Made by a program: the position numbers and the translations under genes
Notes under the pieces: generated by a model
The model's input: only the letters and a program-made list of their open reading frames with translations
Told to the model about the DNA's origin: nothing
Databases searched by the model: none
Shown: positions 11,984 through 27,296 of the stretch, piece after piece
Layout of the letters: each line of letters opens with the position of its first letter
How positions within the stretch are numbered: the first letter of the stretch is position 1
Sequence record: NC_029091.1
Length of the DNA stretch: 64,000 nucleotides
Strand: one strand, 5' to 3'
DNA from: Escherichia phage APCEc01

Positions 11984-12669
<686 letters not shown>

Positions 12670-12682
12670 TTTTCACAAAACA

Positions 12683-12716
12683 GTTTACATAAAGATGATG
12701 GTGTGTTACTATCATC
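12683..12716 (+). promoter_or_regulatory. early promoter with stem-loop (GTTTACA -35, TACTAT -10)
   Basis: GTTTACA at 12683-12689, 17-bp spacer carrying inverted repeat GATGAT/ATCATC, -10 at 12707-12712. Confidence 0.55.
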
Positions 12717-12746
12717 CTATCAAATAAACAGCCTCAAGGAAATAAA

Positions 12747-13034
12747 ATGAAATCCTATAAAGAATTTATATCACCTTTTGCTAACGTTTCTACTCTGACC
12801 GAAGCAACCCTTACTTCCGAAGTTATTAAAGCAAATAAAGGACGTGAGGGTAAACCAATGATTAGCCTGGTTGACGGCGAAGAAGTAAAAGGTACTGTTT
12901 ACTTAGGGGATGGATGGTCTGCTAAGAAAGACGGCGCTACTATTGTTATCTCTCCGGCCGAAGAGACTGCACTGTTTAAAGCTAAGCATATTTCTGTAGC
13001 TCAGCTTAAAATTATTGCAAAAACTCTTCTGTAA
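12747..13034 (+). CDS. internal protein candidate with capsid-targeting N-terminus (IPI-like by position)
   Basis: 95-aa ORF starting MKSYKEFIS, resembling the T4 internal-protein leader MKTYQEFIAE; sits next to 57B where T4 has ipI. Confidence 0.7.
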   Translation: MKSYKEFISPFANVSTLTEATLTSEVIKANKGREGKPMISLVDGEEVKGTVYLGDGWSAKKDGATIVISPAEETALFKAKHISVAQLKIIAKTLL

Positions 13035-15444: not shown

Positions 15445-15909
15445 ATGAAATCATACGCTGAATTTTTGACTGAACAATCTAGTTCAGATGTAAAAGCCGC
15501 TGCGATTGCAGCAATTCAAGCAGGTAAATATTCTTACAAAGACGCCTCTGATGAAGAACGTTTCCGTTTTATTAGAGATTTTAAAGCCGAAGGTTTTACT
15601 AATGCTAATACTGTTAGCCGAGTTTTTAAAAGCCTAGCTGCATCAGGTGAATTGTTCCAGAAAGCTACAGGTAAAGCACCTGCGCCAAAAACAGACCCTA
15701 AAGCAGCTCAAGAAAAAAATATCGCCAAAGGAATTATTTCTAAGTATGAAGCAATTCTTAAAGAGCTTTTAGTAATCAAAACAGAAGGCCAGAAACTGGC
15801 ACGAGCACATAGCTTCAAAGATAATCCTCACGCTCATAGCCTTGAGTATGTTGAAGATATCCAAAAACTTATTAAAGACCGTATCTGGTCTGCTAAACAA
15901 ATTAAATAA
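15445..15909 (+). CDS. internal protein candidate with capsid-targeting N-terminus
   Basis: 154-aa ORF starting MKSYAEFLTEQ. Confidence 0.65.
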   Translation: MKSYAEFLTEQSSSDVKAAAIAAIQAGKYSYKDASDEERFRFIRDFKAEGFTNANTVSRVFKSLAASGELFQKATGKAPAPKTDPKAAQEKNIAKGIISKYEAILKELLVIKTEGQKLARAHSFKDNPHAHSLEYVEDIQKLIKDRIWSAKQIK

Positions 15910-22954: not shown

Positions 22955-23187
22955 GTATAGCAATTTACATTAAATCAGAATCATGTGATAGTTATCTGTA
23001 CACATATGATAAAGATGTGTCAGAAGAAAAAATCAAAGACGACCTTAATATGGACCTTGATATGTTCTGTCCTATTGCAGATTACAAACTTGCGGTCTCT
23101 AATAGTGAAAGTCCATCTAAAGAAACGCGCATTGAAGAATTTATGTCCGAATTAATGGCCAAATCATGGGACCGAGATGATGAGTAA
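22951..23187 (+). CDS. hypothetical acidic protein
   Basis: 78-aa product from second ATG. Confidence 0.45.
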   Translation: MSIAIYIKSESCDSYLYTYDKDVSEEKIKDDLNMDLDMFCPIADYKLAVSNSESPSKETRIEEFMSELMAKSWDRDDE

Positions 23188-23635
23188 GAAAAATAAAGTG
23201 AAAGAACTATCAGCCGGTATTATTTTCCTTACCGAAGATAAAGAATTATTCATGGGGCGTGTAACTGGTTCTCGTCCTAAAGGTGCATTAGCTCATCGGT
23301 GGGATATTCCTAAAGGCCGTGTCGAACCTGGCGAATCTCCTATTGAAGCCGCTATTCGTGAATGCGAAGAAGAAACTGGGTTTACACAATATGACCCTGC
23401 CTTCCTGAAAGACCTAGGTGAACATCATTACTCAGACAATAAGAATATTCATCTGTTCCTATATACCATCCCTGTAGAGCACGAGCAATTCAGAAACAGT
23501 GTTTGTAATTCCTATCATACATTCCCAGACGGACGACAGATTCCTGAATTTGATGCATTCGCTTTAATTAAACCTTCTCAATGGGAATATGTAATGGGTA
23601 AATCATTATATAAGGTGCTCACTACACTCCTATAA
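23177..23635 (+). CDS. nudE: Nudix hydrolase (NudE-like)
   Basis: 152 aa with Nudix box GRVEPGESPIEAAIRECEEETGF; directly upstream of lysozyme as in T4 (e.1). Confidence 0.85.
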   Translation: MMSKKNKVKELSAGIIFLTEDKELFMGRVTGSRPKGALAHRWDIPKGRVEPGESPIEAAIRECEEETGFTQYDPAFLKDLGEHHYSDNKNIHLFLYTIPVEHEQFRNSVCNSYHTFPDGRQIPEFDAFALIKPSQWEYVMGKSLYKVLTTLL

Positions 23636-23642
23636 GTAATAA

Positions 23643-23668
23643 ATACCTCCTATAAACGTGGGAGGTAT
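23643..23668 (+). promoter_or_regulatory. hairpin sequestering the gene e ribosome-binding site, late-promoter-like loop
   Basis: Perfect 8-bp stem ATACCTCC/GGAGGTAT; 3' arm is the Shine-Dalgarno 2 nt before the ATG; loop TATAAACGTG resembles TATAAATA. Confidence 0.6.
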
Positions 23669-23669
23669 T

Positions 23670-24158
23670 ATGAATATATTTGAAATGCTTCGTAATGACG
23701 AAGGTCTTAGACTGACTTTATACAAAGACACTGAAGGCTTTTGGACGATTGGCATAGGCCATTTAGTAACAAAGAACCCGTCTTTAGCCGTAGCTAAAGC
23801 TGAACTTGACAGAATGATCGGTCGTAAATGCAACGGTACAATTACCCTTGATGAGGCTGAAAAGCTATTTAATGAAGACGTTGATAAAGCCGTCCGCGGA
23901 ATCTTGGGTAATGCTAAACTTAAACCGGTATATGATTCTTTAGACGCAGTTCGTCGGTGTGCATTGGTCAATATGGTCTTCCAAATGGGTGTAGCAGGAG
24001 TCGCCGGTTTTACTAATTCTCTTCGTATGCTTCAACAGAAACGTTGGGATGAAGCGGCAGTAAATCTAGCCCAATCTAAATGGTATCGTCAGACACCTAA
24101 TCGCGCGAAACGCGTAATCTCAACATTTAAAACAGGAACTTGGAAAGCGTATATATGA
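23670..24158 (+). CDS. e: endolysin, T4 lysozyme family
   Basis: 162-aa product [32 protein letters not shown]..., close to T4 lysozyme. Confidence 0.95.
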
Positions 24159-24436
24159 AAACATATAGTGAATTTTTATCAGAATCTATTCTTAACGAAG
24201 CTACTGACACATTTGCAACTAAGCTAGGTGCAGCTTTGGTTGAAGCTGAAAGTCTATTAGCACGTATTTCTGAACTTGCTAGTAAGATAGATACTCGCAA
24301 ATTTGAACGTACCAGCGATATCGCTAAGCTTGAAGCCTTGTTGCGTATGTGCGATAAACCAGAAGAAATCGCTAAGAACGGCTCGCTGATGAAACAACGT
24401 CTTGAAAAATATATTTCAGGCGCTTCAGAAAAATAG
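24155..24436 (+). CDS. internal protein candidate with capsid-targeting N-terminus
   Basis: 93 aa starting [11 protein letters not shown]; start overlaps lysozyme stop (ATGA). Confidence 0.65.
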
Positions 24437-24437
24437 T

Positions 24438-24490
24438 GTTTACTTCCTCCAAGGGTTTTGATACTATACATTCATCAACTACTTGGAGGA
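24438..24490 (+). promoter_or_regulatory. early promoter with stem-loop
   Basis: GTTTACT at 24438-24444, TACTAT at 24462-24467, inverted repeat TTCCTCCAAG/CTTGGAGGAA whose 3' arm is the denV RBS. Confidence 0.55.
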
Positions 24491-24494
24491 AATT

Positions 24495-24908
24495 ATGACT
24501 CGTATCAATTTAACACTTGTTTCTGAACTGTCCGACCAACATCTTATGGCTGAGTATCGTGAATTACCACGCGTATTTGGTGCAGTCCGTAAACATGTTC
24601 AAAACGGTAAACGTGTAAAGGATTTTAAAATCTCTCCAACATTTATCTTAGGCACAGGTCACGTAACATTCTTTTACGACAAACTCGAATTTTTACGTTT
24701 ACGTCAAATCGAGCTAATCGCTGAATGCTTGAAACGTGGTTTCAAAATCAAGGACACGACTGTCCAGGATATTTCCGACATTCCTGTAGAATTTCGTAAT
24801 AATTACGTCCCGTCCGAAGCGTCCATTGCGATAAGTCAAGCACGCTTAGATGAAAAAATTGCTCAACGTCCGACTTGGTACAAATACTATGGTAAATCAA
24901 TTTACTAA
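24495..24908 (+). CDS. denV: endonuclease V (pyrimidine-dimer DNA glycosylase)
   Basis: 137-aa product [34 protein letters not shown]..., close to T4 DenV. Confidence 0.92.
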
Positions 24909-24915
24909 GGAAAAA

Positions 24916-25176
24916 ATGAAAATGTATCAAGAATTTATCATTGAAGTAGATGCCAAAGACCCCAAATTTAAAGTTAAAGCTTTCATTGGTGATGCGGAAG
25001 ACTTTGGCTCATTAAAACGTAATGGGTATTCTTTCTTGGGTGGCGATGGTAAAGAAATCAACACCTATGCAAAACGTAGTGAAATTGCTTATGTTGTAGT
25101 AAGTCCTAAAGTAGATGTTGACGATATTGGATACGATTTTAACAACTTCGGAATTATTTCTGGCGGTAAAGCTTAA
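24916..25176 (+). CDS. internal protein candidate with capsid-targeting N-terminus
   Basis: 86 aa starting MKMYQEFIIEV. Confidence 0.6.
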   Translation: MKMYQEFIIEVDAKDPKFKVKAFIGDAEDFGSLKRNGYSFLGGDGKEINTYAKRSEIAYVVVSPKVDVDDIGYDFNNFGIISGGKA

Positions 25177-25179
25177 ATT

Positions 25180-25215
25180 GTTTACGCTTAAGTATTAATA
25201 TGGTATAATTACTCT
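25180..25215 (+). promoter_or_regulatory. early promoter (GTTTACG -35, TATAAT -10)
   Basis: GTTTACG at 25180-25186, TGGTATAAT at 25201-25209. Confidence 0.55.
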
Positions 25216-25239
25216 ATCAAAACAAACAAGGAAACAAAA

Positions 25240-25554
25240 ATGAAAACGTATAAAGAATTTATTGCAGAATCCGCCAACCAACGCGTTGAAGGTGGTTATA
25301 TTTGGATTGAACAAGTTGAGCCACCGAGCCGCACTTCTACAGGTAAATGGAAAATTACTGTTGACGGTCCTGGCGGTAAACGTAGGACTCTTAAAGAAAT
25401 TAACGGGTACTATGAAGAAGCTCTTTCGGATGCAGGAACTTACATGATGCAAATCATGATTAAAAACCCTGAAAACCGTTTTGCAGCTAAAGTCTTCCGT
25501 CGTATTGGTAATAAACTTTATGATGCATACTCTAAAAACTTCCCTAAAGAATAA
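25240..25554 (+). CDS. internal protein candidate with capsid-targeting N-terminus
   Basis: 104 aa starting MKTYKEFIAES. Confidence 0.65.
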   Translation: MKTYKEFIAESANQRVEGGYIWIEQVEPPSRTSTGKWKITVDGPGGKRRTLKEINGYYEEALSDAGTYMMQIMIKNPENRFAAKVFRRIGNKLYDAYSKNFPKE

Positions 25555-25579
25555 CATAAATTAAAACAATAGGAACAAA

Positions 25580-25909
25580 ATGAAAACATATCAGGAGTTT
25601 ATCACTGAAGTTACATTATCTGCGGAACAGAAAGCTGCTATCGAAGAAGGTAAAAATCCCAAAGTAACATACAAAGTAAATAGTAAAGGCGTTTTTGATG
25701 GCTTGGTTCAAGACCCTGAATTGAAAAAAGCTCTTTCTAAAACTAATGCGTACTTTGCTCCTAAATTTAACACAGCCGGTGTACTTATTGGATTGGACGT
25801 ATTCAACTCTAAAGGTGTTCTATCTAATGCCTTTGGTTATGCCGCTAACAAAATTACCAAAGCAGCATGGGAATCCAATACCAAACAAGCTCAAAAGCCT
25901 AGAGTATAA
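25580..25909 (+). CDS. internal protein candidate with capsid-targeting N-terminus
   Basis: 109 aa starting MKTYQEFITEV. Confidence 0.65.
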   Translation: MKTYQEFITEVTLSAEQKAAIEEGKNPKVTYKVNSKGVFDGLVQDPELKKALSKTNAYFAPKFNTAGVLIGLDVFNSKGVLSNAFGYAANKITKAAWESNTKQAQKPRV

Positions 25910-26082
25910 TTCTTGCCTAATAAAGGGAAACGCAACCTCTCCTCATGAACGTCGAGTCCTCTGAGTGATGTACCTTTTCCAACCTGTAATAAGGTCGAGC
26001 CCAAGTGCGGTAATGGGTTTACATAGCGAGTCGAAGGACCTAACATGTGCCACGGAATGGCCCAAACCTTAAGAGAAATAAT

Positions 26083-26622
26083 ATGAGAACATTTTTAACT
26101 GGACCTTATCTATCCCTGATGAATGCTTTTACACACCATTCTGATGCTAGAGTAGAAGAAATTTGTAAGAACGGTTATGTCCCACCATTTGAAGACGTAC
26201 TCAAGCAGTACTGTACACTTCGTTTAGACGGCGGCCGACAATCAGGTAAATCAATTGCTGTGACTAACTTTGCTGCTAATTGGCTGTATGATGGCGGAAC
26301 AGTTATTGTTCTTTCTAATACTTCAGCTTATGCTAAAATTTCTGCTGGCAACATTGAAAAAGAATTTTCGCGTTATTCTAGCGACGATATTCGATTCCGT
26401 TTATTTACTGATTCTGTTCGTAGTTTTATTGGCAATGAAGGTTCTAAATTCCGTGGATTAACGCTTTCTCGTATTCTGTATATAATTGACGAGCCTATTA
26501 AAGCTCCTGATATGGATAAGATTTACAATGTACATATTAAAACAGTCCAACACTGTTGCAAAAGCAAATATTGCATCGGCGGTAATGCTCGTCCTCAATT
26601 TTTTGTGATTGGAATGCAATGA
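26083..26622 (+). CDS. hypothetical protein with P-loop-like motif
   Basis: 179-aa product; LDGGRQSGKSIAV resembles a Walker A motif. Confidence 0.5.
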   Translation: MRTFLTGPYLSLMNAFTHHSDARVEEICKNGYVPPFEDVLKQYCTLRLDGGRQSGKSIAVTNFAANWLYDGGTVIVLSNTSAYAKISAGNIEKEFSRYSSDDIRFRLFTDSVRSFIGNEGSKFRGLTLSRILYIIDEPIKAPDMDKIYNVHIKTVQHCCKSKYCIGGNARPQFFVIGMQ

Positions 26623-26927
26623 TGACCACTATTGAAGTTTTTGAATATTGTTATAACAGCCCAGTATGCAATAAAAGGGCCCTTGTAGAAAATTACGAGA
26701 TTTACCATTTTAAACCTAAACGATACCGTTTGACTAAAGGTCCGTTCGCAGGGCAGCAGGTTCTTTGTACTGCTCCTAATGCACGGTTGATGACTAGTAT
26801 TCCACATTTCAAAATGGAATTTATTGACGGGCCATTTAAGGGATTAATCACTCAAAGTTTAATGGCGTTTAATTCCGACCCATTTTTGATTAAAGAAAAA
26901 ACTTGGATAAATTTATTTTCTAATTGA
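26619..26927 (+). CDS. hypothetical protein
   Basis: 102-aa ORF, start overlaps upstream stop. Confidence 0.5.
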   Translation: MMTTIEVFEYCYNSPVCNKRALVENYEIYHFKPKRYRLTKGPFAGQQVLCTAPNARLMTSIPHFKMEFIDGPFKGLITQSLMAFNSDPFLIKEKTWINLFSN

Positions 26928-26933
26928 GGTTAT

Positions 26934-27296
26934 ATGAAAGCATATCAAATTCTTGAAGGCACACACAAAGGCACTATTTATTTTGAAGACGGTACTCAAG
27001 CCCGGATTATTGTCTCTAAGACTTTTAAAGAAGACGCTATTGTAGACCCGGAAATTTTCTACGGTTTGCATGCCCGTGAAATTGAAATTGAACATCACCC
27101 TAAAGTTAAAATTGAAGGTGGTCAACATCTGAACGTTAACGTTCTGCGTCGTGAAACTCTAGAAGATGCAGTTAAGCATCCAGAAAAATATCCGCAGCTG
27201 ACCATCCGTGTATCTGGTTATGCAGTTCGCTTTAACTCTCTGACTCCGGAACAGCAGCGCGACGTTATCGCTCGCACCTTTACTGAGAGTCTATAA
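26934..27296 (+). CDS. autonomous glycyl-radical cofactor (GrcA/YfiD-like)
   Basis: 120 aa; C-terminal [20 protein letters not shown] carries the glycyl-radical fingerprint RVSGYAV. Confidence 0.75.

Follow-up and report, generated by a model that had tools for sequence, protein, structure and literature searches.

We describe four small genes (A to D) in a 64,000-nt window of the genome of Escherichia phage APCEc01 (NC_029091.1; the window denotes this whole stretch) that are, with good confidence, T4-type internal protein (Ip) genes of the e-denV-vs.8 Ip locus, encoding products that would be packaged in the phage head, injected into the host and most probably directed against type IV restriction. 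The RB69 annotation already labels two of them 'internal head protein'; of the others, one is orthologous to Ip10 and one is an orphan. The leader residues, the locus, these annotations and the Ip10 orthology lend support to the sequence-only reading of the region, which had proposed internal-protein-like genes of a diversified Ip locus. The locus type has been known since 1994 and the phage, an RB69-like Mosigvirus with 98-99% identity to published genomes, is nearly identical to sequenced ones. Polymorphic loci of genes bearing a capsid-targeting sequence (CTS) were described in T-even phages by Repoila et al. (1994), as cited in PMC3012670 and PMC12373910, and the encoded products have already been interpreted as diversified injected anti-restriction proteins.

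Because injected proteins act before phage gene expression, they constitute the phage's first answer to nucleases attacking the incoming DNA, and every characterized member of the class is a highly specific anti-restriction protein. Genes A to D come from a phage group with unusual arabinosyl-cytosine DNA, so knowing their targets would enlarge the picture of type IV restriction and its inhibitors and would help in predicting the host range of therapeutic T4-like phages.

Table 1. Features of the locus and other leader-bearing genes, with positions in the window
Feature	Position	Strand	Remarks
ipI homolog, second Ip locus, downstream of 57B	12747..13034	+	Pfam PF11634 IPI_T4, E = 1.4e-50
Further leader ORF, 154 aa, MKSYAEFLTE followed by Q	15445..15909	+	phrog_2280, function not assigned there
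e, endolysin; left anchor of the locus	23670..24158	+	ORF list; RB69 annotation 'e' at homologous position
Gene A, IP-like, 93 aa, RB69ORF127c	24155..24436	+	Between e and denV
denV, endonuclease V; conserved gene flanked by IP cassettes	24495..24908	+	ORF list, RB69 and T4 comparison
Gene B, IP-like, 86 aa, RB69ORF125c, leader MKMYQEFIIE	24916..25176	+	Starts 8 nt past the denV stop codon
Putative sigma-70/T4-early-type promoter ahead of C, a strong match: (G)TTTACG, 17 nt spacer, TG-n-TATAAT	25181..25209	+	Consensus match
Gene C, IP-like, 104 aa, RB69ORF124c, leader MKTYKEFIAE	25240..25554	+	Ip10 ortholog
Gene D, IP-like, 109 aa, RB69ORF123c, leader MKTYQEFITE	25580..25909	+	Orphan family, annotated 'hypothetical protein'
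Constant right-hand boundary of the cassette array; frameshifted vs.8 remnant	25979..26082	+	tblastn, homology resumption
vs.8, present ORF, start MRTFLTG...	26083..26622	+	tblastn with T4 Vs.8

Organization and variation of the e-denV-vs.8 locus

All four genes are intact ORFs on the same strand; of the two polymorphic Ip loci, e/denV/vs.8 and 57B/ipI/tRNA, they occupy the former, across which the RB69 reference is 98% identical to the window. The gene order is e-A-denV-B-C-D-vs.8, with the e stop codon overlapping the gene A start codon (ATGA). In T4 the order is e-ipIII-ipII-denV-vs.8, which bears out the earlier statement that T4 has two such genes next to denV and e; whereas T4 carries both ip genes between e and denV, here one precedes denV and three follow it. 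The segment at the right-hand boundary corresponds to the N-terminal ~40 codons of a T4-type vs.8, now a frameshifted remnant: tblastn with T4 Vs.8 places residues 6-20 and 23-35 in two other frames, and then residues 38-219 in frame. An RNA gene in the 175-nt gap after D was ruled out by its folding (z = +1.5) and by this frameshifted vs.8 N-terminus, and Rfam returned nothing real over positions 23000-27000, its single weak match ('mir-1912') being a hairpin at the e ribosome-binding site.

For comparison, 80 related loci were fetched with denV as anchor. Between 0 and 5 leader genes flank denV in each of 36 related phage loci, with about 15 body families represented. The identity of the close relative L004 to the window extends to position 25268, 29 nt into gene C, and resumes at 25571, 9 nt before the D start codon; between these positions it has an ipIII-type body instead, and in both L004 and L005 an ortholog of T4 ipIII fills the slot of gene C. 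Relatives L005 and L020 lack D, or B to D, and the homology of both to the window resumes at 25979, exactly where that of phage PP01 resumes too; natural relatives (L020, L015) are found without one, three or all of the four genes. The breakpoints of replacement lie precisely where the leader codons end, so the locus varies through exchange of cassettes. The term hypervariable, applied to the locus beforehand, holds for cassette gain, loss and replacement and not for the individual genes, each of which is under purifying selection. The locus would evolve as whole gene bodies are replaced, gained and lost, with the conserved leader-coding DNA as the recombination joint.

A shared leader of the T4 capsid-targeting type

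The products of A to D have in common the 10-residue leader M-K-x-Y-x-E-F-L/I-x-E, and the N-terminal sequence MK(T/M)Y(S/Q/K)EF(L/I)xE previously attributed to the ORFs starting at 24155, 24916, 25240 and 25580 was confirmed in all four. A six-frame scan of the 64-kb window with the strict motif MK.Y.EF[LI].E gave five matches (A to D and the ORF at 15445), all of them at ORF starts on the + strand, against a chance expectation from composition of 7e-5 per window and 0 occurrences in 200 shuffles. Relaxing the motif added one more match, the ipI homolog at 12747.

In the T4 CTS, residues Y4 and F7 are responsible for targeting, and L/I8 and E10 for cleavage by the prohead protease gp21 at L/I-x-E (PMC9026906). 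Both targeting residues are present in all four leaders, and the cleavage motif occupies residues 8-10 as LSE (A), IIE (B), IAE (C) and ITE (D), followed at P1' by S, V, S and V, respectively, where T4 has A. The proposed identity of the leader with the T4 capsid-targeting type is thus upheld at each of the residues with a mapped function. In a set of 30 related denV loci, 67 leader-bearing ORFs flank denV, and they also agree at leader positions that the search pattern did not impose: of the 67, 63 have T3, 65 have E10 and 60 have a small residue at position 11. Gene A has two cleavage sites, the one after E10 and ILNE15 followed by A, the latter conserved across the whole family; family members in which E10 is replaced by V retain LNE followed by A.

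Ten CTS residues are sufficient in T4 to package foreign proteins, GFP and nucleases included (PMC9026906). The cognate gp21, gp22, gp67 and gp68 are encoded by the RB69 reference and, by synteny, are expected outside the 64-kb window. As A to D carry the T4 head-packaging signal, they probably encode injected anti-restriction proteins.

Protein bodies and their conservation

Beyond the leader, the mature proteins (8-11 kDa) are unrelated to one another, in agreement with the sequence-only reading: pairwise blastp of the leader-less sequences gave no E-value below 0.08, and hhalign between the bodies of the C family and the D family gave a probability of 0.1%. Both C and D are assigned to phrog_3966 in PHROGs; this was rejected as a sign of paralogy on the strength of the hhalign comparison of the bodies alone, and because T4 IPIII and IpIV also touch that profile via residues 1-21 only. 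Compared with IPI (PF11634), IPII (phrog_7857) and IPIII (phrog_5341), the four bodies showed no homology beyond the leader. Pfam returned only sub-threshold noise for A to D and NCBIfam no match, no PDB sequence reached an E-value under 0.1 in searches with C and D, and word-indexed homolog searches recovered close relatives only. AlphaFold models built from shallow alignments were unusable (pLDDT 48 for C and 44 for B).

Genes A to D are real genes. Each is under purifying selection, with dN/dS values of 0.02-0.39 across the four against several orthologs, and 75-231 phage genomes contain copies that are identical or nearly so. Gene A matches phrog_3499 ('internal head protein', E = 2e-46), as which its ortholog is also annotated in the RB69 RefSeq record, and belongs to a family of 495 phage records (dN/dS 0.02-0.11); its mature product would have about 9 kDa, a pI of 6.3 and a helix-rich sequence. 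For gene B, the match is to phrog_2667 ('internal head protein', E = 1e-20), with the same annotation in RB69, a family of 216 phage records (dN/dS 0.17-0.34) and an acidic mature product of 8.2 kDa (pI 5.2). A and B are neutral or acidic, unlike the basic T4 Ips. One database variant of B (P0016) has an internal deletion.

The product of gene C is 96% identical in amino acids (90% in nucleotides) to the 'Ip10 internal head protein' of phage PP01 and 72% identical in amino acids to Ip10 of Shigella phage SP18; the family comprises 188 phage records (dN/dS 0.04-0.28) and the mature protein has a predicted mass of 10.8 kDa and a pI of 9.6. RB69 has its C ortholog, ORF124c, in two pieces in the reference record, annotated at 90 aa. 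The gene D family (89 phage records, dN/dS 0.07-0.39; mature product 10.7 kDa, pI 9.7) yielded, in an exhaustive search of 1.84 billion representative proteins, two real clusters, its own and a 39%-identical one from Dhakavirus; eight weaker matches (27-35% identity) were judged spurious, being short stretches in long repetitive proteins. The sole other annotation of D is a misplaced product label in the ESCO10 record.

Proposed function and alternative explanations

By analogy with T4, packaging, cleavage and injection of the A to D products are highly probable. Each Ip would be made with its 10-residue N-terminal capsid-targeting sequence, which would bring the protein into the prohead scaffolding core, where gp21 would cut after the Glu of L/I-x-E and, in the product of gene A, probably also, or instead, after E15 of ILNE. 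The mature proteins, of 8-11 kDa, would stay in the head with the DNA, enter the host with it and act ahead of all phage gene expression. The most probable action of each is to block a specific modification-dependent type IV enzyme (GmrSD/BrxU- or McrBC-like) that would otherwise attack these phages' arabinosylated DNA.

The arabinosylated DNA of Mosigvirus is a substrate for cutting by BrxU, an enzyme of the GmrSD family (PMC13390438), and T4 Ip1, Ip2 and Ip3 each inhibit one distinct GmrSD variant (PMC12373910). Extrapolating from T4, an anti-restriction function for at least one of A to D appears somewhat probable, and the chances that type IV enzymes are their targets are evenly balanced. 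The T-even genes ip4-10 gave no reproducible inhibition on a GmrSD panel (PMC12373910), in which the tested ip10 may or may not be of the PP01 type orthologous to C; the type IV assignment is therefore by analogy only. Also speaking against the overall reading are the lack of a canonical late promoter in the locus, the neutral or acidic character of A and B and the absence of homology between the four bodies and IPI, IPII or IPIII. The earlier remark that targets are unknown has been overtaken for the class, targets having been reported for Ip1, Ip2, Ip3 and Bas37_0260, and stands for A to D, none of which has a reported target in the literature searched. That literature also yielded no virion proteome of RB69-like phages, and the leader and protein strings of A to D are absent from the supplements of Silas et al. 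2025.

A rather unlikely alternative is that A to D are packaged via the leader and counter defences other than type IV enzymes, such as other nucleases, abortive-infection sensors or exclusion by competing phages or prophages. Their bodies are unrelated to Ip1, Ip2 and Ip3, the T-even ip4-10 inhibited none of 15 GmrSD groups reproducibly, and the acidic or neutral A and B differ in this from known Ips; furthermore, the CTS packages any cargo, GFP and nucleases among them (PMC9026906), so cargo is not restricted to one target class. This alternative has to contend with the fact that all four characterized leader proteins inhibit type IV systems, and that phages with modified DNA are specifically exposed to type IV enzymes.

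Improbable in our assessment is a mainly structural or assembly role for the packaged proteins (core building, DNA condensation or charge neutralization) with no specific host target. T4 IPIII mutants do show slower head assembly and more polyheads, and Ips, each present in about 360 copies, are abundant and are able to bind DNA when salt is low (PMC9026906); C and D, moreover, are basic. Relatives missing some or all of A to D nevertheless exist in nature, so none of these genes is needed for assembly, and the bodies are unrelated folds under gene-specific purifying selection, two of them (A and B) not basic. T4 Ip1, Ip2 and Ip3 themselves turned out to have specific targets.

The expression signals bear on a further explanation. 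A Shine-Dalgarno-like AGGA/GGAA lies 6-10 nt upstream of the ATG in each of A to D, and the sequence surrounding the start codon is conserved (AAGGAAA-n-ATGAAAACATATCAAGAATTTAT). The match upstream of C is the best promoter-like site of the region (10/12 matches, extended -10), from which we infer its promoter function. The canonical late promoter TATAAATA is absent from the locus. Late expression would have to start at near-consensus sites that precede e (TATAAGTA and AATAAATA) and to rely on read-through. The conserved start-codon DNA with its recombination breakpoint, the early-type promoter serving C and D and the missing canonical late promoter could indicate that the 5' end is conserved as a translation-initiation or recombination module, with the proteins unpackaged and cytoplasmic in the producing cell. 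We regard this as very improbable: conservation lies at the amino-acid level and falls exactly on the targeting and cleavage residues, with synonymous changes among the genes, and in T4 the same ten residues suffice for packaging of foreign proteins. In addition, T4 ipIII without its CTS remains active when expressed by the host, so the leader is unneeded for activity and serves only for delivery. Least probable of all is that some of the four genes are decaying, non-functional remnants, as the split C ortholog of RB69 and the deleted B variant might suggest, given that all four ORFs are intact here, with ribosome-binding sites, low dN/dS and widespread near-identical copies.

Comparison with known injected proteins

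Several known systems come close to A to D. T4 IPII and IPIII share with them the position beside e and denV, the leader (MKTYQEFIAE), a similar size and the status of non-essential accessory genes, and differ in that their bodies are without detectable homology to A to D and in that their targets, the GmrSD enzymes of ECOR21 and ECOR17, are known. T4 IPI/IPI* (PF11634), an inhibitor of GmrS-GmrD, belongs to the same packaged, processed and injected class and has its ortholog at 12747-13034 in the window; unlike A to D, it lies in the 57B-ipI-tRNA locus, its leader is longer, at 19 residues, and its body is unrelated to theirs. Ip10 of PP01 (T2-like) and SP18, from the Ip4-Ip13 series ascribed to Repoila et al. 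(1994), is the ortholog of C in the same locus; PP01, a Tequatrovirus as opposed to a Mosigvirus, has no denV and carries ip10 directly after e.

Bas37_0260 combines the same N-terminal signal with an unrelated body in an Ip locus, in its case the ipI locus of a Tequatrovirus, and is likened to A to D by description only; it inhibits McrBC (bioRxiv 10.1101/2025.11.20.689424), by which the class reaches beyond GmrSD to other type IV systems. The ejection (E) proteins of the giant phages phiKZ and SPN3US are also internal to the head, cut by a gp21-related protease after the Glu of a short motif and then ejected into the host, but their propeptides differ (S/A-x-E), and they are much larger and more numerous and share no 10-residue leader.

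Other leader-bearing genes in the window

The ipI homolog has the 19-residue leader MKSYKEFISPFANVSTLTE, followed by ATLTSE. The ORF at 15445 lies outside both classical Ip loci and is a candidate for an unrecognized internal protein; its family comprises 510 phage records, it is hypothetical in every record listed, and its homolog in PP01 retains MKSYTQFLNE. We tentatively raise the possibility, itself unlikely, that the target of at least one of A to D is a defence outside the GmrSD/McrBC type IV class, or an arabinosylcytosine-specific enzyme, the orphan D and the acidic A and B being the likeliest candidates, and that the 15445 ORF marks a third, unrecognized Ip locus. If so, natural Mosigvirus isolates differing only in their cassettes (such as the L004, L005 and L020 types) would form a ready-made isogenic panel for finding the targets.

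Four leader-bearing genes around denV

The sequence-only reading had proposed four internal-protein-like (Ip) genes, A to D, at this locus, and all four were found with their leaders, on the + strand, in both the ORF list and the sequence. Gene A and the endolysin gene e share an ATGA, in which the start codon of A overlaps the stop of e; gene B begins 8 nt after the end of denV, and C and then D follow B, with vs.8 about 175 nt downstream of D.

Features of the Ip loci and their surroundings (coordinates in the window; a slash marks the predicted cleavage position; mass and pI are predictions for the mature protein)
Feature	Coordinates	Strand	Length (aa)	Leader or start	Mass (kDa)	pI	Remarks
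Second Ip locus (57B/ipI/tRNA)	12214-13034	+					ipI ortholog is its sole Ip gene
ipI ortholog	12747-13034	+		19 residues, LTE/A			
Leader-bearing ORF	15445-15909	+	154	MKSYAEFLTE/QSSS			Y4, F7, L8, E10
Hairpin tacctcctataaacgtgggaggta	23606-23669	+					spans ribosome-binding site of e
Gene A	24155-24436	+	93		9.2	6.3	
denV	24495-24908	+					between A and B
Gene B	24916-25176	+	86	MKMYQEFIIE	8.2	5.2	
Early-type promoter match	25181-25209	+					TTTACG, 17 nt spacer, TG-n-TATAAT
Gene C	25240-25554	+	104	MKTYKEFIAE	10.8	9.6	
Gene D	25580-25909	+	109	MKTYQEFITE	10.7	9.7	
Seemingly non-coding stretch	25979-26082	+					before vs.8
Present start of vs.8	26083						internal Met
vs.6 homolog	26934-27296	+					...RVSGYAVRF...

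Scanning the 64 kb window in six frames with the pattern MK.Y.EF[LI].E returned five matches, all at the starts of + strand ORFs, against a chance expectation from composition of 7e-5 and none in 200 shuffles; a relaxed pattern added a single match, the ipI homolog at 12747. The leader is real and far above chance. In T4, residues 1-10 of IPIII suffice for packaging foreign proteins, suppressor analysis showed residues 4 and 7 to act in targeting and residues 8 and 10 in processing, and the prohead protease gp21 cleaves after the Glu of L/I-x-E (PMC9026906). Y4, F7, L/I8 and E10 are kept in all four proteins, which bears out the identification of their leader with the T4 capsid-targeting sequence (CTS). 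The DNA of the start regions is conserved as well (AAGGAAA-n-ATG AAA ACA TAT CAA GAA TTT AT), with synonymous differences between the genes. Eighty loci around denV relatives were taken from IMG/VR; in the 36 T4-like ones, used for leader counts, denV has 67 leader-bearing ORFs as direct neighbours, 0-2 per locus towards e and 0-3 towards vs.8. At positions free in the search pattern, T3 is present in 63 of the 67, E10 in 65 and one of the small residues A, S or T at position 11 in 60. Because a second cleavage-type site in gene A, ILNE15/A, is retained in family members in which E10 has become Val, the mature N-terminus of this protein may be A16. The genes for gp21, gp22, gp67 and gp68 are present in the RB69 reference and, by synteny, those of APCEc01 should lie outside the window.

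As the earlier reading stated, T4 also has two such genes beside denV and e, in the order e-ipIII-ipII-denV-vs.8; both precede denV there, whereas in APCEc01 one precedes and three follow it. Over the 2.5 kb around the locus, identity to RB69 and to dozens of further Mosigvirus genomes is 98-99%. RB69 RefSeq lists A, B, C and D as ORF127c, ORF125c, ORF124c and ORF123c, the first two annotated as internal head protein and the others as hypothetical. The alignment of C with its ortholog in this reference (ORF124c, L001 4640-4912) is broken in two, and the length annotated there is 90 aa instead of 104, owing to a frameshift or to an error of sequencing in the record. Upstream of vs.8, the seemingly non-coding stretch is a decayed N-terminus of a T4-type Vs.8: residues 6-20 and 23-35 of the T4 protein align to it, in two reading frames other than that of vs.8. 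T4 and RB69 annotate vs.6 as a GrcA-like autonomous glycyl-radical cofactor, and the homolog in the window is one too.

Unrelated bodies and an orphan

With leaders removed, blastp found no match among A-D, the window's two other leader-bearing proteins, T4 IPII and T4 IPIII, so that the proposed lack of relationship between bodies held. Genes A and B match phrog_3499 and phrog_2667, respectively, both labelled internal head protein, and PHROGs assigns C and D jointly to phrog_3966. We rejected the kinship this implies: since hhalign of the body alignments gave 0.1% probability, and other Ips touch the phrog_3966 profile through residues 1-21 only, the grouping is an artefact in which the Ip10 and D families seem to be drawn together by the 10-residue leader they share. 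Automated annotation of Ip genes should be read with this in mind.

Gene C shares 96% identity with a protein of the T2-like phage PP01 named 'Ip10 internal head protein' and 72% with Ip10 of phage SP18. Gene D occurs in 89 phage records, as hypothetical in all but that of ESCO10, with its misplaced product labels; among 1.84 billion representative proteins, its relatives outside its own cluster form a single Dhakavirus cluster of 39% identity, eight other matches at E <= 0.001 being discounted as short stretches in long repetitive proteins. By these comparisons D is an orphan. Sequence searches of Pfam, NCBIfam and PDB with A-D gave no match, and AlphaFold models from shallow alignments were unusable (pLDDT 48 for C, 44 for B). 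A and B are atypical in charge, since T4 IPII and IPIII are basic.

An IMG/VR contig (2974737508; L023 4429-4878) encodes a 149-aa leader-bearing protein in which some 55 residues form an additional N-terminal domain ahead of a C-terminal Ip10-type domain; Ip bodies can therefore be modular. The ESCO10 record (OM386655.1) carries misplaced product names and its annotation looks scrambled: a 119-aa Ip-like gene beside a denV-sized ORF is labelled 'RNA polymerase ADP-ribosylase', and vs genes 'DNA ligase'.

Cassette turnover

Against several orthologs, dN/dS was 0.02-0.39 for A-D and 0.02-0.11 for denV. All four genes are under purifying selection, and the variability of the locus is therefore cassette turnover, not rapid point divergence; the label 'hypervariable' is apt in the former sense, with about 15 body families among the leader-bearing ORFs beside denV, and fails in the latter. 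Near-identical copies in phage records number about 231 for A, 152 for B, 130 for C and 75 for D, and only 72 records cover the entire locus to 80% or more.

Comparison locus L004, with a 99% identical denV, shares 96.8% nucleotide identity over 23600-25268, a breakpoint 29 nt into gene C, where the leader codons end; identity returns at 25571, 9 nt upstream of the D ATG, and an ipIII-type 192-aa body lies between. A second locus (L005) has the same left breakpoint, lacks D and regains homology at 25979, and a third (L020) joins the end of denV directly to 25979, without B, C and D. Homology to PP01 likewise returns at 25979, where the right-hand end of the cassette array recurs in several phages. 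The L004 and L005 breakpoints fall where the leader codons stop, and the recombination joint is therefore leader-coding DNA. This pattern fits the polymorphic CTS-gene hotspots whose description PMC3012670 and PMC12373910 credit to Repoila et al. 1994.

Expression signals

No exact TATAAATA late promoter occurs anywhere in the A-D locus. T4 has two TATAAATA late promoters upstream of e, where APCEc01 has TATAAGTA and AATAAATA instead. The promoter and terminator scan found no + strand terminator-like site before 26578, and late read-through from e into the locus is therefore plausible. A strong early-type promoter match, the best promoter-like site of the region, lies directly upstream of C and D, suggesting that these two genes, whose products would be required in proheads, are transcribed early. 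A GTTTAC...TACTAT promoter candidate upstream of denV is visible by eye and was left unflagged by the scan. The hairpin at the ribosome-binding site of e, which produced a spurious Rfam 'mir-1912' match, resembles the T4 arrangement in which the e start site is sequestered in early transcripts.

Function

By every sequence-level criterion tested, A-D belong to the T4-type internal-protein class. CT596 has a GmrS/GmrD enzyme that IPI* inhibits (PMC3012670), T4 infection of ECOR17 requires ipIII (PMC9391042), each of Ip1, Ip2 and Ip3 inhibits a GmrSD variant of its own, without cross-protection (Silas et al. 2025, PMC12373910), and the leader-bearing Bas37_0260 inhibits McrBC (2025 preprint, bioRxiv 10.1101/2025.11.20.689424). 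Mosigvirus DNA contains 5-arabinosyl-cytosine, and BrxU, an enzyme of the GmrSD family, cuts it (PMC13390438). The most likely role of A-D, judged by analogy, is that of injected type IV enzyme inhibitors. Caution against this analogy comes from ip4-10 of T-even phages, which gave no reproducible inhibition of a GmrSD-group panel (PMC12373910), although the ip10 tested may differ from the Ip10 of gene C. None of A-D is homologous to an Ip whose target is known, their leader and protein strings are absent from the supplements of Silas et al. 2025, and we found no reported target for any of them in the literature. The earlier description of targets as unknown no longer holds for the class, given GmrSD and McrBC inhibition.

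The locus type has been known since 1994 and repeatedly reviewed, and the finding is correct but restates it. APCEc01 is nearly identical to RB69, in which half of A-D are already annotated. RB69 was sequenced in 2003. The remaining value lies in D, an orphan that lacks annotation and has a perfect leader, in the leader-bearing ORF at 15445, beyond both classical loci, and in natural cassette variants as a direct route to target discovery.

Other leader-bearing genes

The 15445 ORF follows a tRNA-Met/Arg pair, outside both classical Ip loci, with a terminator-like hairpin and a AATAAATA late-promoter-like site upstream. It matches phrog_2280 (function unknown) and is present in 510 phage records, those listed all calling it hypothetical. 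In PP01 the homolog, whose annotated start lies 30 codons upstream, retains MKSYTQFLNE; the corresponding stretch of T4 holds rnaC and rnaD and no annotated counterpart. The product is a candidate unrecognised internal protein. At the second Ip locus, RB69 has an additional leader-bearing gene, RB69p156 (MKTYQEFIAEATKADKNF...), between 57B and ipI; its absence from the window is another presence/absence polymorphism.
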